Shown: positions 25,544-64,000, counted from the stretch's first letter. The stretch: DNA of 64,000 nt from an uncultured Bacteroidales bacterium (GCA_963844935.1 CAWJQH010000004.1:236307-300306), one strand, 5' to 3'. The notes: generated by a model from the sequence alone, not told the origin. Program-made: numbers and translations.

Positions 25544-25786
25544 TTGAAACGCGCACATATCACTGAGGAAAAGATAAAGAGAACGACCAACCTTACTCTA
25601 AGGCTAAATGAGAGGGAAGCGAGGGCTCTCAACATCTACTGTCAGCGTTTCAGGGTAAGGAGCAAGTCAGATTTTATGCGTCGCACCATCATGCATGCCA
25701 TTATTGGCAGGTTTGACGCCGAGCATCCTACGCTGTGGGAGCAGGGTGAGCTTACCCTGTTTTCACCTGAACCGAAAAATAACTGA
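25544..25786 (+). CDS. small hypothetical protein, possible ribbon-helix-helix fold
   Basis: TTG start. LTLRLNEREARALNIYCQRFRVRSKSDFMRRTIMHAI resembles an RHH (beta-strand plus two helices). No other support. Confidence 0.35.
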   Translation: MKRAHITEEKIKRTTNLTLRLNEREARALNIYCQRFRVRSKSDFMRRTIMHAIIGRFDAEHPTLWEQGELTLFSPEPKNN

Positions 25787-25860
25787 TCACAATCTGAGGC
25801 AAACCTAATTTTACTATTTTTGTGAATGCCACAAAGGGGGGATTTTTTGTTGCGGCCATA

Positions 25861-26244
25861 ATGGGAATGAATATTATCAAAATAGAGCCTACAAAGGTTA
25901 CACCTGAAGTATTGTTTCTTGATGGTCACCTTGAGATCAGGGGGAGGTCGATTCCCGAGAACGCTTCTGATTTTTACCGTCCTCTTGAAGAGTGGGTGAC
26001 TGAATATGTGGCTCACACGGCAATCAGGACGCGTGTATCGCTTTCATTTGATTTCATAAACACGGCATCGACCAAATGGGTTTATGGCATCATAAAGAAG
26101 CTCTCCCTTTATGATGATGTTCACAACAGGGTCTCGATAGAATGGTTTTATGAAAGGGGTGATGACGAGTTGTACGAACTTGGTCAGATTATTCACTCTT
26201 TCATCGACTGTCCGTTTATCTTTTACGAGACAGAGCAATCCTGA
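25861..26244 (+). CDS. DUF1987 / SiaC-like small regulatory protein
   Basis: MNIIKIEPTKVTPEVLFLDGHLEIRGRSIPENASDFYRPLEEWV..FDFINTASTKW..W.YE.GDD pattern. ATG at 25861 or 25867. Confidence 0.65.
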   Translation: MGMNIIKIEPTKVTPEVLFLDGHLEIRGRSIPENASDFYRPLEEWVTEYVAHTAIRTRVSLSFDFINTASTKWVYGIIKKLSLYDDVHNRVSIEWFYERGDDELYELGQIIHSFIDCPFIFYETEQS

Positions 26245-26289: not shown

Positions 26290-26362
26290 TGACCCATGGT
26301 GTAATTGGCAACACGTCTGATTTTGGTTCAGAAGAGTCGGGGTTCGAACCCCTGTGGGTCAA
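26290..26362 (+). tRNA. tRNA-Gln (anticodon TTG)
   Basis: Hand-folded cloverleaf: acceptor TGACCCA/TGGGTCA, D stem GTGT/ACAC, anticodon stem TCTGA/TCAGA with loop TTTTGGT, T arm CGGGG-TTCGAAC-CCCTG. 73 nt, no encoded CCA. Confidence 0.9.
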
Positions 26363-26464: not shown

Positions 26465-26487
26465 AACCCCTGTGGGTCAACAAAAAA
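26465..26487 (+). repeat. 23-nt exact duplicate of the tRNA-Gln 3' end (att-like scar)
   Basis: AACCCCTGTGGGTCAACAAAAAA occurs at 26347-26369 (inside and just after the tRNA) and again at 26465-26487. Confidence 0.85.
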
Positions 26488-26520
26488 GAAAGAGGCTGTT
26501 TCAATGCAGATTGAAGCGGC
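26481..26520 (-). terminator. intrinsic terminator of the TIR gene (minus strand)
   Basis: Minus strand reads GCCGCTTCAAT-CTGC-ATTGAAACAGC (11-bp stem, 2 G-U pairs), then CTCTTTCTTTTTT. Confidence 0.7.
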
Positions 26521-26566
26521 CCTTCCTTTTAATGACAGACCACTTCTGTTATATTCTAATCTTCAA

Positions 26567-28717
26567 CTATTTAGGTGTTTGATATTCCGATAACCCCATT
26601 TTGGCTAACATGGCCTGAAATATTGGTTCTGACCGGAAGACCTCATAATTGGGATCGGTATTTATCCGGGGCGATGGCTGGTTTTCAAAGTATTTCTCAA
26701 GCCAGTATAAGGCTTCTTCTTTCTTACCGGCACGTGCATACCTTATGGCTAAGGTTGATGGATTAGGTGTTTGTCTCCTGAGCTCCAATTCCAGGAGCCA
26801 GTTCCATATACCATCTATTCCTGATTTATTGTATACATCTTTAACAAAATGTGCATTTTTAACTAAAATCGTATCGCCGCTTTTGAGAAGAATCTTCTCA
26901 AGTACTTCAACTGCCTTCCGGTCTTCACCCAGTCCAATGTAGTTGTAAAAATACCGCATTGAGAAATCAGTGCTGTCATCAGAAGTCAGTTCCAGTAATT
27001 TTAATTCTTCAATCAGCGATTCCCTGAACTTGCCTTCGTGAAAGTAAAAAAGCGAACTCAAATCTCTCATCATCGGGAAAAACGGATCAATTTCCAGAGC
27101 CAGATTTATCTGTTTACGAGCTTCAGAGTTCTCTCTCAGAATATCCAGTAACTCAGCATAGTAGGAATGAGCTGTAACAAAGTTCGGGTTTAATTCAACA
27201 GCAAGCTGTAACTCCTTACGGGCCTCCTCCCATTTCCATTCATTCCAGAATAAGATCCCGCCAAGTACCGTGTGTGCTTCCGCAAGATTCTTATTAAGCC
27301 GGAGGGCCTTATTTACGTATTCTTTTGACTTTGCATAAGCTTCTGCCTGTGGCATCTCCTGGTACCATGCAAGAAGGAAATAAGCATCAGCCAGTCCGGC
27401 ATAAGCCAGGGCATAATCCGGATCTGCGGCTACTGCCTTTTCAAAATATTCAATGCCTTTTTTATATCCCTGGCTCGTCCTCTTCTCTATATAAAAACGG
27501 CCCAGCAGATACAGATTATATGCTTCCGGATTCTCGGTTTCATTTTTCTTAATATCTTTCTTCTCCTCAGATGTCAATGTTGCTTTTAACTCATTTGCAA
27601 CATTTTGAGCAACCTCAGACTGAATTGTGAAAATATCCGTAATGTTTCTGTCATATATTTCGGACCATAAATGCACATCCGTTTTTGCATCAATAAGCTG
27701 AGCTGTTATCCGCACATTACTCCCTGTTTTTTGTACGCTGCCTTCAAGAATTGAGGCAACACCTAATTCTCTGCCTATCTCCTTGATAGAGAGTTCAGTA
27801 TTCCTATATCTTTTGGTTGATGTACTGGATATGACTTTCAGGTCACCTACTTTGAAAAGGTGATTTAGGATTGCTTCCACAATACCGTCACTGAAATAGA
27901 CCTGGGTTGTATCATTGCTCAGGTTGGTAAATGGTAATACAGCTACAGATTTTTCGACAGTTTCGGAAGATTTAAGCAATTTCGGCAACAGGAAAAGGCC
28001 AAGAATAAGTAATGCCAATACAATTATTGATCCTGCAATGATTCTTGTTTTACGAATTCCTGACCGGAAGGCAACCGGTTTAAAAGCTTCCTTTTTTACA
28101 TCTTCAGGTGGAAGATCATATTGGGTTATCGCGGTAATAATATCTCTTATTGCAAGAGCAACCTTATTTATCTGATTCCGGTAATTGGTTTTGTTCAGGT
28201 TTTTCTCCTCATTATCCTTTTTAGTCAGGGGTCTGTCAACACCCGGTTCTTTATATATGAATTCAACTCCCCTGAGAACTCCGCCCAGAACGGATTCACA
28301 TTCTGTAATATCAGCAATACCAAGCTCATGAATACGAACCGGCAGCACCCTGCTCGCCACATTGCCATTAGGCAGCCTTACCTTCAGTCCAAACTTATCA
28401 TGAGAGGCCTGAACAACAAATGCCTTAAACTCTTGCTCCCATGCAAAGGATTTAGGATCACAGTATGTTCGGGATATTATCGGAATGAAGACCAGACACT
28501 TCAGTTTCTCTTTTAAGGAGGCATCTACATCATGGGTCTCCAACAGGCCGTCATTCGGGTTGATGTCAAAATAAACACTGACTTCCTCTTTAAAAGTAGA
28601 CTCAAGTTCTGTCTTCAATGCTTCCACAAATTCACTCACCCACCTGTCGCCCTTGTTGTCTTTCTGGCGGTAGCTGATAAATACATCATATTCATAACCC
28701 GGAATGGCGCTTGACAT
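26567..28717 (-). CDS. TIR domain - TM helix - periplasmic TolB-N-like module - TPR repeat protein
   Basis: ATG 28717 (MSSAIPGYEYDVFISYRQKDNKGDRW..). TIR-like ..LVFIPIISRTYCDPKSFAWEQEFKAF... TM helix IIAGSIIVLALLILGLFLLPKLL. KSVAVLPFTNLS..FSDGIVEAIL..ILEGSVQKTGSNVRITAQLIDAKTDVHLWSEIYD. Then ~300 aa of TPR-like repeats. Confidence 0.75.
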   Translation of the reverse strand: MSSAIPGYEYDVFISYRQKDNKGDRWVSEFVEALKTELESTFKEEVSVYFDINPNDGLLETHDVDASLKEKLKCLVFIPIISRTYCDPKSFAWEQEFKAFVVQASHDKFGLKVRLPNGNVASRVLPVRIHELGIADITECESVLGGVLRGVEFIYKEPGVDRPLTKKDNEEKNLNKTNYRNQINKVALAIRDIITAITQYDLPPEDVKKEAFKPVAFRSGIRKTRIIAGSIIVLALLILGLFLLPKLLKSSETVEKSVAVLPFTNLSNDTTQVYFSDGIVEAILNHLFKVGDLKVISSTSTKRYRNTELSIKEIGRELGVASILEGSVQKTGSNVRITAQLIDAKTDVHLWSEIYDRNITDIFTIQSEVAQNVANELKATLTSEEKKDIKKNETENPEAYNLYLLGRFYIEKRTSQGYKKGIEYFEKAVAADPDYALAYAGLADAYFLLAWYQEMPQAEAYAKSKEYVNKALRLNKNLAEAHTVLGGILFWNEWKWEEARKELQLAVELNPNFVTAHSYYAELLDILRENSEARKQINLALEIDPFFPMMRDLSSLFYFHEGKFRESLIEELKLLELTSDDSTDFSMRYFYNYIGLGEDRKAVEVLEKILLKSGDTILVKNAHFVKDVYNKSGIDGIWNWLLELELRRQTPNPSTLAIRYARAGKKEEALYWLEKYFENQPSPRINTDPNYEVFRSEPIFQAMLAKMGLSEYQTPK

Positions 28718-28821
28718 CTGCGAAATAGTTGTTTGAATTTCAAAGGTACACCATGCTAATGCCAAAGTCAACTATATTGAGATGAAGCATGGGCATACAT
28801 AATACATCTGCCTGACTGAAA

Positions 28822-28877: not shown

Positions 28878-29309
28878 TCAAAATCTTAATGTTATTCCCA
28901 ACCCAACCGCCGTTGAATTATTTGGTTTAATGTAATACGCCTTCATTGCAACTTCAGCTTTCATTTTTCTGCTTCCGCTTATCCAAAGGGGAACGCCCAC
29001 CAAAGAAGAAAGGGCACCACCAATAGTCATACCTGCATATAGTATCGGCTCAAACCCACCCCTGTCTTCAGCAGGTGTTTCCAATGCATAATTAATGAGG
29101 AGAAAAACACCTGTTATATAAATTGGAAGTCCTGCCAGGGTCATTATCATTCCTGCAGTTCGCATATTAGCAGCTTTATCTTTATACAGATCAAGCTGGT
29201 CTTTATTTAAAGTATCCGGATTTATCTTCTGGGCCATTGTGATATTGGAAACAAAGCACAACACTAGTATCAGCATGATAAGTCTGAAAGTAATCCGATT
29301 TCCTTCCAT
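28878..29309 (-). CDS. hypothetical small envelope/membrane protein
   Basis: Signal peptide-like N-terminus (LIMLILVLCFVSNITMAQ), two hydrophobic helices, C-terminus ..AVGLGITLRF. Confidence 0.6.
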   Translation of the reverse strand: MEGNRITFRLIMLILVLCFVSNITMAQKINPDTLNKDQLDLYKDKAANMRTAGMIMTLAGLPIYITGVFLLINYALETPAEDRGGFEPILYAGMTIGGALSSLVGVPLWISGSRKMKAEVAMKAYYIKPNNSTAVGLGITLRF

Positions 29310-57861: not shown

Positions 57862-58500
57862 ATGAAGGATAAATTTCTGATATTTTTTTTGCTGATTGCA
57901 CCATTAAGTGCCGCACAGGATACGTGGTACGGTGAGGTTGCGCTATTTGGCGGAGGAGGTACGAATGACATCTTCAGGTATGATGAGCTTGATGGAGCAG
58001 GCTCGGTCACTGGAACGGGCACGTGGACAACAGGTATTGATATACGGAGGTTATTCGGCGATCATTTCAGTCTTGAGTCCGGCCTTGGATATTCCCATCA
58101 GTATTATTATACAAGTCCTGCCCCGGGGATCACCGGAGATGATGTTCCCGGAAGTTTTGGATTAATAGTCCTGCCTTTTACTGCCAGGGTCGATTTCCTG
58201 CATTGGTTTTTTGCCGATGCAGGGGCAGTGTTTACGCTGCAGACCGGCAACTCTCAGACTGATAATATGACGGGACTGGGGGCCACACTGGGAGCCGGTT
58301 TTCAGTACAACTTCAAATCTGACATTTTCTTAAGGATCAGAGCTTATACAAGCCAGTATGCCCTGTTGCATTTTATGCCGGAAGATTATCCGCAGACGCT
58401 GATGAATTCAGGTGTGACCTTAGGGATCGGTTACAGGTTCATTCATCTCGGCAAGTGCAACTGTCCGGATGATAACAGTCCCCGCAGGAAATATTACTAG
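57862..58500 (+). CDS. small outer-membrane beta-barrel protein
   Basis: Signal peptide MKDKFLIFFLLIAPLSAAQ and alternating aromatic/Gly beta-strand pattern (..GLGYSHQYYY.., ..GAGFQYNF.., ..TLGIGYRF). Confidence 0.6.
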   Translation: MKDKFLIFFLLIAPLSAAQDTWYGEVALFGGGGTNDIFRYDELDGAGSVTGTGTWTTGIDIRRLFGDHFSLESGLGYSHQYYYTSPAPGITGDDVPGSFGLIVLPFTARVDFLHWFFADAGAVFTLQTGNSQTDNMTGLGATLGAGFQYNFKSDIFLRIRAYTSQYALLHFMPEDYPQTLMNSGVTLGIGYRFIHLGKCNCPDDNSPRRKYY

Positions 58501-59484
58501 TCCTCAGCTATTTCCCTGATCATTTCTTTTGCCTCTTTCCATTTCTCTTCGGGCATGCGGGCACCTACGACCTCGATGACTTTTCCTGCAAGTATTGACC
58601 CGAACAGGCCGCATTTGTCGAGGCTGAAGCCGTGTGAGAAGCCGTAGAGGAAGCCTGCGGCATAAAGATCGCCGGCGCCGGTGGTATCAACGGGTGTCAC
58701 CGGCAGTGCATCGACCCTGATCACTTCCTCGCCTCTTTTTATCCATGATCCCACGGGACCGGTCTTCACAATTGCAACAGTGCATCTCCTTGCTATGGCG
58801 TCAAGCGCTTCCCTCGGGTCAAGTCCCGTGAATGCCCTTGCTTCCTCTTCATTGGCGAAGATGATATCGACATATTTGTCGACGATTTCATTAAATCGCG
58901 GCAGCATATCTGTTACCACGTTGAAGCTTGACAGGTCGAGAGCGATACACATCCTTTTTTCTTTGGCCAGGCGGCAAGCCTGTTCGACGAGGGGGAGGTT
59001 AAAGATGAGATATCCTTCGAGGTAGAGAATATGGTAGCCCTTGAATAATAAGCTGTTGAGCTCTTCGGCGACCAGCTCTGTGGCGGCGCCGAGGTGGGTG
59101 GCGAAAGTACGTTCCAGAGTCAGGAGTAACAAGTGCCACGGCTGTACCTGTGGGTGATGCGTGTGCACGCATGAGCACGGGTGTCACGCCGGCCTCGACC
59201 ATATCCTTCTCGTAGAAGTTGCCGAGCTCATCGCGGCCCACTTTACCTATGAATGATGATGGTATGCCCATGATACCGAGGCCGTACATTGTATTTCCTG
59301 CCGAGCCGCCGGAGGCGAGCGTTTTTTGCATGGAGTCAATTGACTGTTTTATCTCGCCTGAGCGTGTGTTATCGACCATTGTCATGCTTCCTTTGGGGAG
59401 GCCGAAGCGTGTGAGGTATGTGTAATCAGGCACCATTGTCATGACGTCTACGAGTGCGTTGCCGATGCCTAATATCTTCTTCAT
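58497..59484 (-). pseudogene. PfkB-family carbohydrate/adenosine kinase, one frame break
   Basis: The N-terminal ORF 58999..59484 (MKKILGIGNALVDVM..GGSAGNT..) and C-terminal ORF 58497..59168 (..DTTGAGDLYAAGFLYG..) join as ..LVTPDS | ERTFATHLGAA... Indel near 59116-59120. Confidence 0.8.
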
Positions 59485-59561: not shown

Positions 59562-59635
59562 TCCTCAGTAGCTCAGTTGGTTAGAGCACCTGACTGTTAA
59601 TCAGGGGGTCCCAGGTTCAAGTCCTGGCTGGGGAG
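59562..59635 (+). tRNA. tRNA-Asn (anticodon GTT)
   Basis: Hand-folded: acceptor TCCTCAG/CTGGGGA, D arm GCTC-AGTTGGTTA-GAGC, anticodon arm CCTGA-CTGTTAA-TCAGG, T arm CCAGG-TTCAAGT-CCTGG. 74 nt. Confidence 0.9.
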
Positions 59636-59648
59636 CGAAGCAAGTCAA

Positions 59649-59681
59649 CCACTTACACGGATTTCGGGTAAGTGGTTTTTT
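59649..59681 (+). terminator. intrinsic terminator after tRNA-Asn
   Basis: CCACTTAC-11 nt-GTAAGTGG followed by TTTTTT. Confidence 0.8.
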
Positions 59682-59688
59682 CTTTGGC

Positions 59689-59711
59689 GCCAGTTTTGGG
59701 CCAGGTTTTGG
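59689..59711 (+). repeat. direct repeat, left copy (GCCAGTTTTGGGCCAGGTTTTGG)
   Basis: Matches 63969-63992 (GCCAGTTTTAGGCCAGGTTTTTGG) with one substitution and one 1-nt indel. Confidence 0.75.
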
Positions 59712-60024
59712 ATGAAATTCACTGTTTTGGGTCATAAATTGATGACGGTTGAAGGCTGTTATTAAGTAAGGACTGATGCGTATATTTAAATGAAAATAGC
59801 TGGAAAAATTCCAGCTACTCATGTCCATCCTACTGTCTTACATTTAAAAACAATTGACTTTGGATTGAGGAAAGCATAACTTTACATAAATACCATTGAT
59901 CTGATTAATTGACATTAAATTCTATCTCAATTTCATTTGATCAGCCGCTTGTGCGATCGAATGTTAAGGTGAGCCAGGCTTACCAACGCACTTTTGCCAG
60001 TTAGATTTTCTAAAATATATAACC

Positions 60025-60939
60025 ATGAAAAGGGGAAACTTATTTAACTATTTTTTAATGATCATTCCATTGTTATCAATGAGTAATTGGGCCTATTCGC
60101 AGAGTCCTATGACCAATGCTGTTTCAGATCAAAAAGTAGCAGAGAATTTTTACCTGATAAAGGACTTTGGCTGTAATATTGCGGTCATGGCAGGGCAAGA
60201 GGGTCTGATAATTATCGATACAGGTCACGAAAGGTCTTCATTAAAAACAAATTTAGTTATTTCGACAATTTCCAATCTGCCTGTAAAGTATATTTTAAAT
60301 ACACACCTTCATTTCGACCATTTGGGAGGCAACAAAAAACTTTCGGAAAAGGGAGCAATAATTGTTGCGCATGAAAATACCAGGAAGGGAATGTTAATGG
60401 AATGGAATATGCCAGAGATAGCAGGAATTAAATATCCTGTAATTCCTCCCTATCCTGAGGAATATTTGCCAAAAATATGTTTCCATGACTCGCTTAACAT
60501 TTATTTCAACAATGATATTATTAAGTGTATTTGGTTACCAAATGGTCATTCTGACGGTGATGTGATTTACTATTTTGAAAAAGCCAACTTAATCCATGCA
60601 GGAGATTTGTTCTTATCTAATGGATTTCCAATAATTAATCCACTGCCAGGTTCAATAGATGCTTATATAAAAGCCGTTGATGAGATTATTAAAATTTGTG
60701 ACGAGAATACTGTTATTATACCAGGCCATGGACCTGTCGCAGATCGCCAGGAATTGAAAGAGTATAAAATTATGTTGACTAAATCAAGGAACAGGATTGA
60801 CAGGTTGGTAAAAGAAGGAAAAACATTGGATGAGGTCATTGCAGCAAATCCGACCAGGGGTCTTTTTAAAGGTGGAAAATCATGGTTGCCAGACAAGCTA
60901 TATATCGCAACAGTCTTTATGGGTTTATCTCAAAAATAG
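60025..60939 (+). CDS. secreted MBL-fold metallo-hydrolase
   Basis: Signal peptide. HxHxDH in NTHLHFDHLGG. Later GHSDGD and PGHGP. Confidence 0.8.
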   Translation: MKRGNLFNYFLMIIPLLSMSNWAYSQSPMTNAVSDQKVAENFYLIKDFGCNIAVMAGQEGLIIIDTGHERSSLKTNLVISTISNLPVKYILNTHLHFDHLGGNKKLSEKGAIIVAHENTRKGMLMEWNMPEIAGIKYPVIPPYPEEYLPKICFHDSLNIYFNNDIIKCIWLPNGHSDGDVIYYFEKANLIHAGDLFLSNGFPIINPLPGSIDAYIKAVDEIIKICDENTVIIPGHGPVADRQELKEYKIMLTKSRNRIDRLVKEGKTLDEVIAANPTRGLFKGGKSWLPDKLYIATVFMGLSQK

Positions 60940-60994
60940 AAAGTTGTCTTTTGTGAATGTATTGTTCCTATGCCATCAGATAAATCCCAGTAAC

Positions 60995-62054
60995 ATGAAA
61001 AAAACTTGCACAATAGCAATGATTATAGCATTCTTGATGCTGTTGTCAAATGGCCTACGAGCTCAAAATAATCAACCCAGCCAAAGGGAACCTGGAGCCG
61101 TACCAGAGGCCAGAATTTATCACAGCCTTGTATACCATATTAAAACTGACAATATTCTTGTTTTTGCTGGATTAACTAAGCGAGGTTGGATAGGAGATCT
61201 TCGTGATATTTGGAAGTATGATCCGAACACTGAGCAATGGAAATATGTTGGAATATGTGAAGCTGTTTCAGATGATGGTAAAAGCGTAATTACTACAATG
61301 GCCTATGATCAGGAATCTGATCAATTTATATCTGTTGACCATAATGGCAGTACCTGGGCTTACAATTTTAAAAAAAATCGATGGAAAAACATGAATCCGC
61401 TAACATCTCCTTCGGGTAGGGCGGGACAAGGAATGGCCTATGACAAAGAGTCGGATCAGAATAATAATGTTCGGAGGATTTGGTGGTAAGAGTATTGATG
61501 ATTCAGTTTTCTCCGATACATGGACATATGATTTTAATGCCAATCAGTGGACTAAAATGAACCCCAAACTATCTCCTTCAGCAAGAATGTATTTTGCTAT
61601 GACTTATGATGCAGAGAACGATAAGGTAATTTTATGGGGCGGACGAAAAAAGGATCCAATTACTGATAATATGGTTTGGATATATGATTATAACGAGGAT
61701 TCATGGGAATTGAAGGAAAATATCGGAGGTCCTGAAAAGCCTTTAACATACTCAGTAATGGTAAATAGAATCAATTCTAAAGACAATATCATATTTGGAG
61801 GTGCGATACTTGAGTCTGTCTATAAGGGGACTTTAACCAATGAAACATGGTCATACAATTTAACACAGAACAAATGGAACCGATTATCTCCTGAAGTTTC
61901 TCCTCCCCCTATGGCAGACCATAATATGGCATACGATGCAAAAAGGAATTCAATCATCTTGTTCGGAGGAGAGCTTGGGACTCTGTACTCAAACAAGTTA
62001 TCTGGAGATCTATGGATATTTAATTCAGGAATAAATTCATGGATTAAAAAGTAG
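60995..62054 (+). pseudogene. secreted Kelch-repeat beta-propeller protein, one frame break
   Basis: ATG 60995 (MKKTCTIAMIIAFLMLLSNGLRAQ). ORFs 60830..61489 and 61440..62054 join as ..GMAYDKESD | RIIMFGGFGG... Indel at ~61455-61462 in an A-rich run. Confidence 0.7.
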
Positions 62055-62184
62055 ATAAATACCTTATATGTAAAGAGTTACTCAATCTGTTTAAAGTCCC
62101 AACAAGACCCTGGAAAGGACTTACCCATGCTTTTAACGGGTAAATCGAAATTTTTTCACCAGAATCGAGATTAATATATCGAGA

Positions 62185-62685
62185 TCATTTCTTTTGCCAA
62201 TTCCATGTAAGAGCTGCAACGGCATTACTATTTTGAGAAACTGTTAATATGAAGGCATCTTGCGACTTGAATTCAAATTTAAATTTTATTGATGCATTTT
62301 CTGGATCGGAAATATCCTGTTGCAGCACTCCTTCAACTATATTCTTAGATGTGAACCAAACTACATCAATCTCCATTACTGGAGTATTATTGAATATTTC
62401 TGCAATAATAATTTTATCATTCTTTTTATCATACCCCCATAGGTACTTATTCTGATCAAAAATTGTGTCTTTGGAAATAAATCTAGTATTCCCTACCATC
62501 GCATCGCCAAAAGGTATGTTCTCAAAAATCATTGAAGAGCCATCAGGACTATCATGCTTCCAGCTACCAATAAACTGCTTCATCAACTCCATTTGATCAA
62601 GTTTTGTGTCAGCGGTCTGTGCCTGAATCCCGTATGTACAGAATAACAGAGCAGTAATCATTGTGGTCAAACAAACAGTTTTCAT
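62185..62685 (-). CDS. hypothetical small secreted protein
   Basis: ATG 62685 with signal peptide MKTVCLTTMITALLFCTYGIQAQ. 166 aa, beta-rich. Confidence 0.6.
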   Translation of the reverse strand: MKTVCLTTMITALLFCTYGIQAQTADTKLDQMELMKQFIGSWKHDSPDGSSMIFENIPFGDAMVGNTRFISKDTIFDQNKYLWGYDKKNDKIIIAEIFNNTPVMEIDVVWFTSKNIVEGVLQQDISDPENASIKFKFEFKSQDAFILTVSQNSNAVAALTWNWQKK

Positions 62686-62864
62686 TTGATTGGGGTATGG
62701 TTTATAAATAAAAAAAAATTGTAAATCAATTATATGATGAAAGTTACGCCGAAAATTAACCACAGTCAAATAAATTGAACAATACTTGACATCTATTATA
62801 TTGATCAGTAAATTTGACATAAAGCGTTATACCCTCTCATAATTAATAACTTCTACCCTTACCC

Positions 62865-63821
62865 ATGAAAAAAACCATTTTGGCTGCAGTAACAGTATAT
62901 TCTATTTTAAGTTTTTCTTCCAACCTATCTGCCCAAATGCTGTGGAAACAAGTGACAACATCTGCTGAATGGCAAGCAAGGTTTCAGCATTCTGCAGTAG
63001 TTTTCAATAATAAAATGTGGGTAATGGGCGGCAGTAGTGATACAATTGTCTTAAATGACATCTGGTATTCAAAAAATGGTTTAAAATGGACAATGGCATC
63101 TGGCAATGCTGGGTGGTCAGGTAGGGCATGCTTTACTTCTGTGGTTTTCAAAAACAAAATATGGGTAATAGGTGGTTGTTTAGCGAATGGCACCAATTTG
63201 AACGATGTGTGGTATTCATCAGATGGTATTGAATGGAAGCAAGCAATAGCATCTGCTCCCTGGACTGGAAGGCATTATCATACATCAGTAGTATTTGACA
63301 ATAAAATCTGGGTGTTTGGTGGGTATGATGGCAATTGGAAAAATGATGTATGGTGTTCATCAGATGGCTTAAACTGGATTCAAACAACTGATTCGGCATC
63401 ATGGTCAATAAGATGTGCCCAATCATCAGTAGTCTATGATAATAAAATGTGGGTAATTGGTGGTGTATATAGAAAGGATAAAAAGTTCGTCTACCTGAAT
63501 GATGTTTGGTATTCAAATGATGGTAAAAATTGGATTCAGACAACTGATGCTGCATTATGGCCCAAAAGGTATGCGCCCCAGGTAGTTGTTTATCGTGACA
63601 AAATGTGGTTAATGGGTGGATGTCCGATGTTTCCATCGACTCATATAAATGATGCCTGGTCTTCTACTGATGGAACTGTATGGAATCAGGCAGCCAATTC
63701 ATCTGCCTGGGCAGCCAGAAAAAGTTTCTCAGTATTAGAGTATAAAAACCGCATGTGGTTAATTGGTGGCGATACTACTGCTTATAAATATGGGACCAAC
63801 GATGTCTGGTATTCGAAATGA
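62865..63821 (+). CDS. secreted six-bladed beta-propeller repeat protein (Kelch-like)
   Basis: Signal peptide. Six repeats of ~48 aa: NDVWYS.DG..W.Q....A.W..R..H.SVVF.NK.WV.GG. Confidence 0.75.
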   Translation: MKKTILAAVTVYSILSFSSNLSAQMLWKQVTTSAEWQARFQHSAVVFNNKMWVMGGSSDTIVLNDIWYSKNGLKWTMASGNAGWSGRACFTSVVFKNKIWVIGGCLANGTNLNDVWYSSDGIEWKQAIASAPWTGRHYHTSVVFDNKIWVFGGYDGNWKNDVWCSSDGLNWIQTTDSASWSIRCAQSSVVYDNKMWVIGGVYRKDKKFVYLNDVWYSNDGKNWIQTTDAALWPKRYAPQVVVYRDKMWLMGGCPMFPSTHINDAWSSTDGTVWNQAANSSAWAARKSFSVLEYKNRMWLIGGDTTAYKYGTNDVWYSK

Positions 63822-63968
63822 TCCACAAAAAACAAATTTCAATAAGAGATAACAAAAAATGAAAAGTTTAACTCTGTCAATCTCATTGGAATTAACTTTT
63901 AATGCAGTAACTGGATAGGAAATATGCTCATTTAAAACTTCAGACGGGGAGTATCTTCTCAATACAAG

Positions 63969-63992
63969 GCCAGTTTTAGGCCAGGTTTTTGG
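63969..63992 (+). repeat. direct repeat, right copy
   Basis: See 59689-59711. Confidence 0.75.
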
Positions 63993-64000
63993 GAAAATCT

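Follow-up and report, generated by a model that had tools for sequence, protein, structure and literature searches.

A divergent TIR domain on a predicted extracytoplasmic TolB-like/TPR sensor in a large paralogous family of uncultured Bacteroidales

In the literature consulted, the characterised bacterial TIR systems sense infection in the cytoplasm. In a survey of E. coli TIR proteins, membrane features like those of Toll-like receptors (TLRs) were seemingly absent from bacterial TIR systems (PMC11350192). TIR domains combined with TPRs have been described as the E. coli 'TIR-II' systems (PMC11350192), as TIR-AP-ATPase-TPR proteins (PMC7159879) and as the 'group 6' proteins with an N-terminal TIR and C-terminal TPRs (PMC7075850). 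An N-terminal TIR on STAND-type and FGE-sulfatase bodies is the context of an oligomerisation-activated effector (PMC7159879). Searches of the accessible literature turned up no bacterial TIR whose sensor lies outside the cytoplasm, in line with a preliminary description of the gene studied here, in which an envelope-facing TIR sensor was regarded as a different logic. With a TIR placed on a sensor that faces the periplasm, TIR/NAD+ signalling would come to include the detection of outside cues, and bacteria would have an analogue of the TLR topology that was noted as apparently missing (PMC11350192).

Here we analysed a gene with this predicted arrangement from an uncultured Bacteroidales bacterium. 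All coordinates refer to a stretch of 64,000 nucleotides (GCA_963844935.1 CAWJQH010000004.1:236307-300306), hereafter the window. Based on the ORF list and the N-termini of homologues, the complete coding sequence spans 26567..28717 (minus strand). It starts at ATG 28717, as described before, ends with a TAG stop at 26567-26569 and specifies a protein of 716 aa. For this exact protein, with either of the two possible starts considered below, no entry was found on record. All motifs that had been quoted for the protein were found in the translation. An in-frame TTG at 28771, upstream of the ATG, is a possible alternative start. When the N-termini of homologues were compared, all of them began at the position equivalent to the ATG, with the motif 'M[AS]S[IL]I.GY.YD', and ATG 28717 was therefore taken as the start. 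Between the TTG and the ATG, 24 nt upstream of the latter, a putative -7 promoter box was read from the sequence (TACCTTTG, 28741-28748, minus strand). It was named on the basis of its match to TAnnTTTG, which we take to be the Bacteroidetes -7 promoter consensus. The gene does possess its own terminator-like element of the intrinsic type, a hairpin with a T-run at 26481..26521 (minus strand) that separates the gene from the convergent tRNA-Gln. The hairpin (GGCCGCTTCAAT-ctgc-ATTGAAACAGCC, 26494-26521) has a GC-containing stem of 12 bp, is located 46 nt past the stop codon and is followed by TCTTTCTTTTTT on the minus strand.

The N-terminal 196 residues (28130..28717, minus strand) form a predicted cytoplasmic head, in which a divergent TIR is followed by a conserved C-terminal β-hairpin/helix extension. 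The claim of an N-terminal TIR held at the level of the fold, whereas the single sequence missed the database thresholds. With Pfam TIR_2 (PF13676) the window protein reached 15.4 bits (E 0.028), below the gathering threshold of 28 bits, and a single-sequence search with the L6 TIR was not significant (E 0.23). More generally, TIR matches were sub-threshold or absent in single-sequence searches of Pfam, NCBIfam, PADLOC and, with phmmer, the PDB, and a HMMER family profile of the head had no match at E<=10 among PDB sequences. When eight divergent family members were searched, TIR_2 was the top-ranked model in seven and the second in the remaining one, with scores of 14-22 bits, all below 28, and with profile position 1 always at residue 12.

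The structure prediction that had been proposed as a check yielded a confident AF2 model of the head (pLDDT 89.8, pTM 0.88) from an MSA of 149 sequences. This model replaced that of an earlier run on 20 sequences of ~80% identity, which was unusable (pLDDT 50). In a Foldseek search against the PDB, the best match was RUN1 (E 3e-4), followed by SARM1, RPP1, TcpB, MyD88 and ThsB; ranks 1-10 were held by the TIRs of RUN1, SARM1, RPP1, TcpB and MyD88 with a probability of ~1.0. Foldseek TM-scores were only 0.45-0.63 (0.5-0.63 for the top ten, target-normalised). The top match in a viral structure library was also a TIR. In both libraries, TIR domains outranked every other fold, with flavodoxin-like oxidoreductases and nucleoside 2-deoxyribosyltransferases lower in the lists. 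Using hhalign, the head was aligned to the plant TIRs L6, RUN1 and RPV1 with E ~3e-5 and a probability of 51-72%. Against L6 alone, E was 4e-6 and the score 42, compared to scores of at most 28 and E values of at least 9e-4 for 20 shuffled controls. Sequence identity to known enzymatic TIRs is only about 10-17%. Taking the family alignment, the AF2 model and the hhalign results with plant TIRs together, we regard the head as a genuine TIR, though a divergent one.

An invariant Glu together with an SYR motif is a feature of NADase TIRs, unlike the scaffold TIRs of TLR/MyD88. The β-A motif of the family, 'YD(I/V)FISYR', resembles 'DVFISYRR' of SARM1 and 'YDVFLSFRG' of plant TIRs. The Glu of the WEQEF motif had been put forward as the catalytic residue, and the second Glu of this motif, E96 (W93-E-Q-E96-F; codon 28430..28432, minus strand), is the candidate. 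It is invariant among 149 representatives, and hhalign puts it on L6 E135 and RUN1 E100, the catalytic Glu of plant TIRs. The alignment with SARM1, which is of low confidence, places E96 beside E642, one residue off, and in these profile alignments the register of E96 relative to the catalytic Glu is ambiguous by one residue. The spacing is W-x-x-E in the family versus W-x-x-x-E in canonical TIRs. An ungapped L6 alignment would suggest E94 as the catalytic residue; this was rejected, since E94 varies to Q or R in divergent members whereas E96 does not vary. Residues 54-63 (PNDGLLETHD; 28529..28558, minus strand) constitute a BB-loop-like segment that is predicted to be flexible. Nowhere else in the AF2 model does pLDDT drop under 50. 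The columns of this segment are at least 90% conserved, and its counterpart in the plant TIR alignment is the BB-loop region 'DELLKGKEI'. The head is apparently catalytically equipped, as a putative TIR of the NAD-cleaving type.

C-terminal of the head, the only strong hydrophobic segment of the protein coincides exactly with the single TM helix described previously (residues 225-247, 27977..28045, minus strand). The linker in front of it had been given as ~60 charged residues. Most of this stretch, residues ~150-196, is the conserved β-hairpin and helix of the head, and the truly variable part is the basic segment of ~28 aa at residues 197-224 (28046..28129, minus strand), which could be aligned in only 23 of 279 members (median identity 42%). 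The 15 residues ahead of the TM helix contain five K/R and no D/E, giving flanking charges of +5/0 inside versus +3/-2 outside. In the positive-inside analysis of the family, the N-side was the more basic one in 79% of 189 single-TM members. The window protein has no N-terminal signal peptide. Hydropathy and the positive-inside pattern predict an N-in/C-out orientation, which would place the TIR head in the cytoplasm and the TolB-like/TPR part outside of it. Together with the domain matches, they support the proposed order of a cytoplasmic TIR, one TM helix and an extracytoplasmic CadC/TolB-like module with TPRs.

The first part of the predicted sensor (residues ~250-375, 27593..27970, minus strand) is a TolB-N/CadC/LpoB-like α/β module. 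With the full protein, the NCBIfam models CadC (E 4.6e-10) and HilA/EilA (E 4.6e-16) matched over residues 255-672. Positions 216-414 of the CadC model correspond to residues 266-472. Both matches are far under the equivalog cutoffs (58 versus 589 bits) and therefore indicate homology of the module, not orthology. Among family members, matches to the TolB (best E 6e-9), CadC and HilA models were found, and weak matches of the juxtamembrane module to LpoB and FlgO. The second part is a TPR solenoid of ~340 aa (residues ~376-716, 26570..27592, minus strand) supported by Pfam, NCBIfam and PDB TPR matches. Pfam TPR_19, TPR_14, TPR_2, TPR_11 and TPR_17 were above their cutoffs within residues 418-545, and the end-cap at residues 656-704 matched NCBIfam TPR_END_plus with 35.3 bits (cutoff 32). 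Both the TPR region and the module known from CadC/ToxR-like regulators were hence recovered after the single TM helix. No Trans_reg_C or winged-helix DNA-binding domain was found in the protein, the N-terminus being the TIR head. The idea of a swapped output agrees with the alignment of the sensor to HilA/EilA and CadC downstream of their wHTH, and with its alignment to the cyclase-linked TPR model TIGR04510.

The window gene is not a one-off but typical of the very large family of paralogues to which it belongs. Clustering at 90% identity gave at least 1515 clusters; at 50% identity, with E<=1e-30, there were 512. Of 287 genomic matches, the best 80 were all in Bacteroidales MAGs bar one likely misbinned contig, and the family occurs almost only in uncultured (wetland) Bacteroidales. 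One MAG holds at least 15 copies, tandem arrays contain up to five copies per 12 kb, and frameshifted copies (pseudogenes) occur, Illumina MAGs included. Because the TIR head lies below Pfam thresholds, database entries for family members are unnamed or called 'hypothetical protein', which leaves this large family as a blind spot in defence and signalling catalogues.

Conservation within the family is strongly uneven, with a median identity of 75% in the head, 44% in the TolB-like module and 28% in the TPRs. Between ancient paralogues, in which synonymous sites are saturated, head identity is still 75-85%. Values of pN were 0.13 in the head versus 0.53 and 0.59 in the sensor parts, and pS was ~0.76 throughout and saturated. 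The head is therefore kept by purifying selection; gene conversion was rejected, since the head shows saturated synonymous sites just like the tail. The conservation spans all 196 aa and goes beyond what the active site alone would need.

About 83% of the full-length members have an extracytoplasmic sensor and the rest are cytoplasmic. In 14% of members, the TolB-like/TPR sensor comes without a TM helix. As the cytoplasmic versions share the head, envelope sensing is the commonest but not the sole option in the family. The head is also fused to NB-ARC/STAND-TPR bodies (e.g. L003:6001-8763, NB-ARC E 1e-8) and to TM-PEGA-FGE-sulfatase(-hydrolase) ectodomains, while Pfam detected no STAND/NB-ARC NTPase in the window protein itself. 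Short 'TIR-only' ORFs were considered as adaptors and mostly rejected, since most of those checked were frameshifted or interrupted full-length genes.

The neighbours of the window gene encode a 143-aa membrane protein without family match, DUF5686, FISUMP and SiaC, and the nearby genes for surface or secreted proteins encode DUF5686, FISUMP, Kelch and CotH with a T9SS tail. As reported before, a ThsA/SIR2-type partner is not adjacent; there is none among the neighbours, and PADLOC had no matches in the window, ThsB included. We searched 79 related loci for a recurrent partner gene. The commonest neighbour cluster was present in at most 6 of the 79 loci, by which a conserved operon partner was rejected. 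None of the loci retrieved was collinear around the gene, and a syntenic or orthologous locus was rejected among them. Of the AT-rich island described at this site, a modest GC dip was recovered (0.37-0.46 versus ~0.48-0.50). The idea that tRNA-Gln borders a mobile element or defence island was not supported: no integrase, mobility or defence genes were found, and the sole trace is a 16-nt repeat of the tRNA-Gln 3′ end, 100 nt away. Search patterns derived from the sequence of the window gene alone retrieved no viral relatives from IMG/VR contigs. The gene context (no PADLOC match, island, mobility gene, recurrent neighbour or viral copy) gives no support for a defence role.

Compared to the enzymatic TIRs of plant TNLs, SARM1 and AbTir/ThsB, the window head shares the TIR fold, the 'DVFISYR' β-A motif, the invariant Glu in α-C aligned to the plant Glu, the conserved BB-loop-like segment and the N-terminal placement before a sensor body. 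It differs by an insertion of ~10 residues ahead of the BB-loop, by the ~45-aa conserved C-terminal hairpin and helix, by W-x-x-E and by its score below the TIR_2 threshold. Like CadC, the protein carries a cytoplasmic output at its N-terminus and, beyond a single TM helix, a sensor in the periplasm, and the CadC and HilA/EilA models align to the sensor half over ~400 residues. Unlike CadC/ToxR/HilA, the output is a TIR and not a wHTH, and the family is multi-copy and diversifying. The predicted layout is also that of animal TLRs, in which a solenoid-repeat sensor outside the cytoplasm is joined through one TM helix to a TIR inside, with many paralogues in which the TIR is conserved and the ectodomain variable. 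However, TLRs carry LRRs instead of a TolB-like module and TPRs, their TIR is C-terminal and not N-terminal in a type-II orientation, and the window TIR retains a catalytic-type Glu in contrast to their scaffold TIRs. As there is no homology to TLRs outside the TIR, the resemblance is convergent. Defence proteins of the bacterial TIR-TPR and TIR-STAND types likewise combine an N-terminal TIR and C-terminal TPRs in one polypeptide of ~700 aa or more, and window paralogues carry the family head on NB-ARC/STAND-TPR. Those proteins are cytoplasmic, whereas the TM helix puts the window TPRs outside; moreover, the window head represents a TIR subfamily of its own that lacks annotation, is nearly confined to Bacteroidales MAGs and is not found in defence islands. 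Thoeris (types I-XI) resembles the window protein in having a possibly signal-generating TIR, with ThsB structures among the fold matches, but here the sensor is fused and membrane-anchored, and there is no adjacent effector at the window or in the 79 loci.

We favour the reading of an outside-in single-pass receptor with a TIR NADase output that is activated by clustering, and consider it about evenly balanced between right and wrong. The protein would be a type-II (N-in) inner-membrane receptor, in which the periplasmic TolB-N/CadC-like module and the TPRs serve as ligand sensor. Following the precedent of SARM1, plant TNLs, AbTir and bacterial TIR-STAND proteins, binding of a ligand outside the cytoplasm would cluster the receptors and let the TIR heads meet, and the assembled heads may form composite active sites around the conserved BB-loop and E96. 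NAD+ would then be cleaved, leading either to its depletion, with growth arrest or an abortive response, or to an ADPR-derived signal to an unlinked effector. With a nearly invariant TIR head on diversifying sensors and dozens of paralogues per genome (at least 15 counted in one MAG), the family would amount to a lineage-specific repertoire, and we infer that it is a pattern-recognition or conflict-type receptor set. A stronger form of this idea, which we regard as unlikely, is an innate-immune-style repertoire built on one TIR head. Its TLR-like membrane receptors would sense extracytoplasmic non-self, such as parts of incoming phages, effectors of contact-dependent or T6SS attack, or molecules of competitors in the periplasm, next to NLR-like receptors in the cytoplasm, and through TIR oligomerisation both would produce the same NAD-derived signal for a shared unlinked effector. 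If true, trans-envelope TIR signalling would be new to bacteria, and a single genome would contain a convergent counterpart of animal TLRs together with plant TNLs.

Alternatively, the family may act in physiological signalling and not in immunity. The proteins would then be a lineage-specific set of one-component-like environmental sensors, in which the TIR makes an NAD-derived messenger or locally tunes NAD+ on periplasmic nutrient or envelope cues, comparable to the ECF/anti-sigma and hybrid two-component expansions of Bacteroidota, and the TIR would replace the wHTH, cyclase or kinase outputs that this TolB-like/TPR sensor type has in other bacteria. We consider this rather improbable. In its favour are the alignment of the sensor half with HilA/EilA, CadC and TIGR04510, the lack of a defence island, PADLOC match or mobile-element link, the surface and secreted proteins encoded nearby, and the numerous paralogues with distinct sensors, which recall nutrient-sensor expansions. 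It is harder to reconcile with the sharing of the head by NB-ARC/STAND-TPR and FGE-sulfatase bodies, whose typical setting is conflict systems (PMC7159879), and with the frequent pseudogenes and tandem birth-and-death turnover; in the literature searched, no non-immune signalling role was found for any bacterial TIR.

A TIR that works as scaffold or adaptor, catalytically silent or only secondarily catalytic, would assemble homotypically or heterotypically with one shared unlinked cytoplasmic partner, as in TLR/MyD88. Binding to a common partner or to itself would demand conservation over the full 196-aa head as seen between ancient paralogues, one head on very different sensor bodies suits adaptor logic, and the fold matches include the TIRs of MyD88 and TLRs. 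The top fold matches, however, are enzymatic (RUN1, SARM1, RPP1), the invariant Glu and the SYR motif are as in NADase TIRs, no candidate partner gene is linked, and the 'TIR-only' ORFs are mostly broken full-length genes, which makes this reading distinctly unlikely to us. Least probable, and by our estimate very improbable, is that the protein is no receptor at all, with the TolB-like/TPR ectodomain as a structural or assembly part like LpoB, TolB and TPR lipoproteins, and a flavodoxin-like or nucleosidase-type head functionally unrelated to TIR NADases. The TIR assignment is sub-threshold by sequence, oxidoreductases and deoxyribosyltransferases do appear among the fold matches, and the similarities to LpoB, FlgO and TolB are weak; against this stand the ranking of TIRs above other folds in both structure libraries, the TIR-specific β-A and α-C motifs, and the divergent paralogues, TM-less versions and STAND fusions, which are hard to square with a structural role in the envelope.

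Under the receptor reading, the constant head and the variable sensors would provide a natural experiment, in which the head is assayed once and many sensors can be screened for ligands. Moreover, since one head occurs on TLR-like, NLR-like and lectin-like bodies, domain swapping could directly address what activates a TIR. As counterpoints to a receptor in the envelope, we note that elsewhere TolB-like/TPR sensors belong typically to ordinary regulators (CadC, HilA, cyclases), and that the TM-less members imply that the sensor need not face the envelope.

The TIR gene (26567..28717, minus strand) proved to be a real ORF encoding 716 aa from ATG 28717 (ORF list), and every motif quoted in the preliminary description was found in its product. 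An alternative in-frame start, TTG 28771, would add 18 residues. The N-termini of homologues (M-[AS]-S-[IL]-I-x-G-Y-x-Y-D) all lie at the position equivalent to ATG 28717, and a TACCTTTG box between the two codons, read from the sequence, fits the Bacteroidetes −7 consensus. At the other end, 46 nt past the stop codon, we found a terminator-like 12-bp hairpin (26494-26521, minus strand) followed by TCTTTCTTTTTT on the minus strand.

No signal peptide was found in the window protein. The TM helix described at 27977-28045 corresponds exactly to residues 225-247, the sole strongly hydrophobic segment and the only TM helix. It is preceded by 15 residues with five K/R and no D/E and followed by 15 with three K/R and two D/E; the N-terminal side was likewise the more basic in 79% of the single-TM family members (n=189). 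Missing signal peptide, single TM helix and charge bias together predict a cytoplasmic head (residues 1-196) and an extracytoplasmic C-terminal part of 470 aa. Most of the stretch taken for a 60-aa linker is conserved and extends the head; the variable linker proper spans about 28 aa. The HilA/EilA model matched the full protein over residues 255-672 (E 4.6e-16), and the CadC model matched it with profile positions 216-414 (E 4.6e-10), which we take to lie within the CadC periplasmic domain. In family copies the juxtamembrane module matched the TolB (best E 6e-9), CadC and HilA models, and weakly LpoB; it is TolB-N/CadC-like. The remainder of the protein consists of TPR and a TPR end-cap. With a CadC/HilA/TolB-like module and TPR behind the TM helix, a ToxR-like architecture with its output swapped for TIR is a fair reading.

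The TIR-type domain was not apparent in single-sequence searches. Pfam returned only TPR families for the full-length protein, and TIR_2 below the cutoff of 28 for the isolated N-terminus (E 0.028, 15.4 bits). In a single-sequence PDB search the L6 TIR scored E 0.23, PADLOC did not match the protein, and a family profile of the head retrieved no PDB sequence at E<=10. However, of eight divergent family members, seven had TIR_2 as the top-ranked model and the eighth had it in second place (E 2e-4 to 0.075), with residue 12 aligned to profile position 1 in each. AF2 gave an unusable model from 20 near-identical sequences (pLDDT 50), and a head model with pLDDT 89.8 and pTM 0.88 from a 149-sequence alignment of representatives of 50% clusters. 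The best PDB matches of this model were RUN1 TIR (E 3e-4), SARM1, RPP1, TcpB, MyD88, IL-1RAPL and ThsB; below these TIRs came generic flavodoxin-like proteins. In a viral structure library, too, the top match was a TIR. When the family was aligned by hhalign with L6, RUN1 and RPV1 (sequences validated against PDB, the RUN1 E100A entry fixing the catalytic Glu), we obtained E ~3e-5 over ~145 columns; L6 alone gave E 4e-6 and a score of 42, whereas none of 20 shuffled controls scored above 28. Since TIR_2 rankings, AF2 fold matches and hhalign agree, the head is probably a true TIR, of a subfamily that has diverged strongly; it groups with the TIR superfamily by structure although it misses the Pfam TIR_2 threshold.

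The Glu singled out earlier (codon 28430-28432) is E96, which is invariant in 149/149 representatives; E94 is replaced by Q or R in divergent members (WQNEF, WQYEF, WRHEF). In the alignment with the plant TIRs, W93 fell on the motif Trp and E96 on L6 E135 and RUN1 E100, as expected for the catalytic position. Against this, the family spacing is W-x-x-E, compared to W-x-x-x-E in canonical TIRs, and in a low-confidence alignment with SARM1 E96 lay one residue beside E642. E96 is supported as a candidate catalytic Glu. The beta-A motif, YDVFISYR, is similar to SARM1 DVFISYRR. Residues 54-63, aligned to the BB-loop region, form the sole low-confidence segment of the head model, yet are invariant in sequence; we infer a loop that may become ordered only upon TIR-TIR assembly.

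With the head alone as query, 1515 or more clusters (90% identity) were retrieved, the top 120 being 71-85% identical to the window head. Among 50%-identity representatives, an exhaustive search found 1122 clusters at E<=1e-3, of which 512 reached E<=1e-30, and a one-genome-per-species scan gave 287 matches. The best 80 of these 287 loci come, but for one contig, from MAGs of uncultured Bacteroidales (in part labelled Rikenellaceae) from fens, peat, soils and sediments. The exception, a 2.7-kb contig in a Candidatus Methanofastidiosum bin (LNGD01000173.1), carries a family member with a head 81% identical to that of the window; most likely this is binning contamination and not an archaeal copy. 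The 80 loci hold 131 copies, often in tandem (up to five per 12 kb), and one MAG has at least 15; the window has one. Since the short ORFs checked were mostly frameshifted or interrupted full-length genes, also in Illumina assemblies, birth-and-death turnover is suggested. A large family is thus brought to light that is mostly nameless in the searched databases, or labelled 'hypothetical protein', with one 'TolB-like protein' as exception.

Median identity to the window protein was 75% in the head, 44% in the TolB-like module and 28% in the TPR region. In a Nei-Gojobori analysis of 600 pairs, pS was saturated (~0.76) in all three parts, and pN was 0.13, 0.53 and 0.59, respectively. The head is therefore kept by strong purifying selection on the protein. 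Gene conversion as its homogeniser is ruled out by the saturated pS in the head itself. In 230 members with a length of 600 aa or more, the head was followed by TM and TolB-like module (+ TPR) in 172, by TolB-like/TPR without TM helix in 32, by TM and another ectodomain in 14, by TM, PEGA, FGE-sulfatase and alpha/beta-hydrolase in six, and by NB-ARC/STAND and TPR without TM helix in five; one had neither TM helix nor any of these modules. Extracytoplasmic, cytoplasmic and NLR-like sensors thus share the head as a portable output module. Examples on TM, PEGA, FGE-sulfatase (C-type-lectin-like) and dienelactone-hydrolase bodies are L038:3151-5994 and L039:6001-8784 from related MAGs. Diversity-generating retroelements commonly act on FGE-sulfatase domains.

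The TIR gene is surrounded by genes for a 143-aa predicted membrane protein without family assignment (28878-29309, minus strand, 160 nt upstream), DUF5686, FISUMP and Kelch proteins, a GNAT-methyltransferase, CotH with a T9SS tail, a SiaC-family protein and fructose-bisphosphate aldolase. The 143-aa protein is not conserved beside family members in other loci. As described before, no ThsA/SIR2-type partner is adjacent, nor did we find an effector at the locus. The AT-rich island, in the mobile or defence sense, was not supported: GC dips only modestly over 26-38 kb, no integrase lies near the gene, and PADLOC matched none of four genes scanned. 'Accessory region' is justified. Around the gene, collinearity with the window was seen in none of the fetched loci. 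No more than six of 79 homologue loci share any one neighbour cluster, and search patterns derived from this one sequence found no relatives on IMG/VR contigs. Linker and island apart, the earlier interpretation stands in its architecture and is much widened by the family.

Induced proximity is an established trigger of the N-terminal TIR in SARM1, plant TNLs and bacterial TIR-STAND proteins. For the last of these it is documented in PMC7159879, and the logic may be transferred to the family because the very same head occurs on STAND-TPR bodies. Ligand binding by the TolB-like/TPR ectodomain would cluster the single-pass receptors, the TIR heads would assemble and cleave NAD+, and the outcome would be either NAD+ depletion or an NAD+-derived signal read by an unlinked effector. 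Such an outside-in NADase receptor, immune or physiological, is the most economical reading, and we give it an even chance. That the whole head is conserved may also reflect binding to a shared partner. The repertoire speaks for a pattern-recognition or conflict role, with its many diversifying paralogues, its pseudogenes, and its NLR-like and lectin-like relatives; physiological signalling is kept alive by the lack of a defence-island context and by a sensor of the regulator type.

Precedents for TIR-TPR or TIR-STAND-TPR proteins are E. coli TIR-II (PMC11350192), 'group 6' TIRs (PMC7075850) and the Aravind-lab conflict systems (PMC7159879); TIR-made signals operate in eleven types of Thoeris (bioRxiv 2025.12.03.692087). 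TLR-like membrane features are seemingly absent in bacteria (PMC11350192), and in the literature consulted on bacterial TIRs we found no description of a TIR joined via a TM helix to an extracytoplasmic sensor. The window protein differs from Thoeris in having no effector gene, from CadC/ToxR in lacking the wHTH, from TIR-STAND in lacking the NTPase, and from TLR in lacking LRR and in its reversed polarity. New here are the TIR subfamily and the predicted trans-envelope wiring of a TIR sensor-effector fusion, a finding that is computational only, yet specific and testable.

Several further observations were made in the window. Sixteen nucleotides of the tRNA-Gln 3′ end, AACCCCTGTGGGTCAA (26347-26362), recur exactly and in direct orientation ~100 nt past the tRNA, at 26465-26480. 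A hairpin and a T-run come after either copy; these are the only two in the window, no integrase is nearby, and the repeat might represent a local duplication or an att-like scar. Just upstream of tRNA-Gln is the gene for the SiaC-family regulatory phosphoprotein (25822-26244, plus strand); a small ORF ahead of it (25544-25786, plus strand) matches DUF6290 weakly. By eye, a similar N-terminus heads a neighbour ORF cluster in two related loci. A PfkB-type carbohydrate/adenosine kinase (58497-59484, minus strand) appears split into two overlapping ORFs (N-terminal 161 aa, C-terminal 223 aa); the gene may be frameshifted or a pseudogene, or the sequence may contain an error. Past tRNA-Asn, 59562-64000 has a GC of 0.34-0.38 and encodes an MBL-fold hydrolase and Kelch-like repeat proteins. 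Family members adjoin the homologue of this region in several related MAGs (loci L003, L025, L045, L053, L055 and L072), and it seems to be a recurrent variable site. The Kelch-like repeat gene at 62879-63817 shares 91% nucleotide identity with one in another MAG (L053:10021-10959), whereas other DNA common to the window and related MAGs is mostly ~65-80% identical, which suggests recent exchange.
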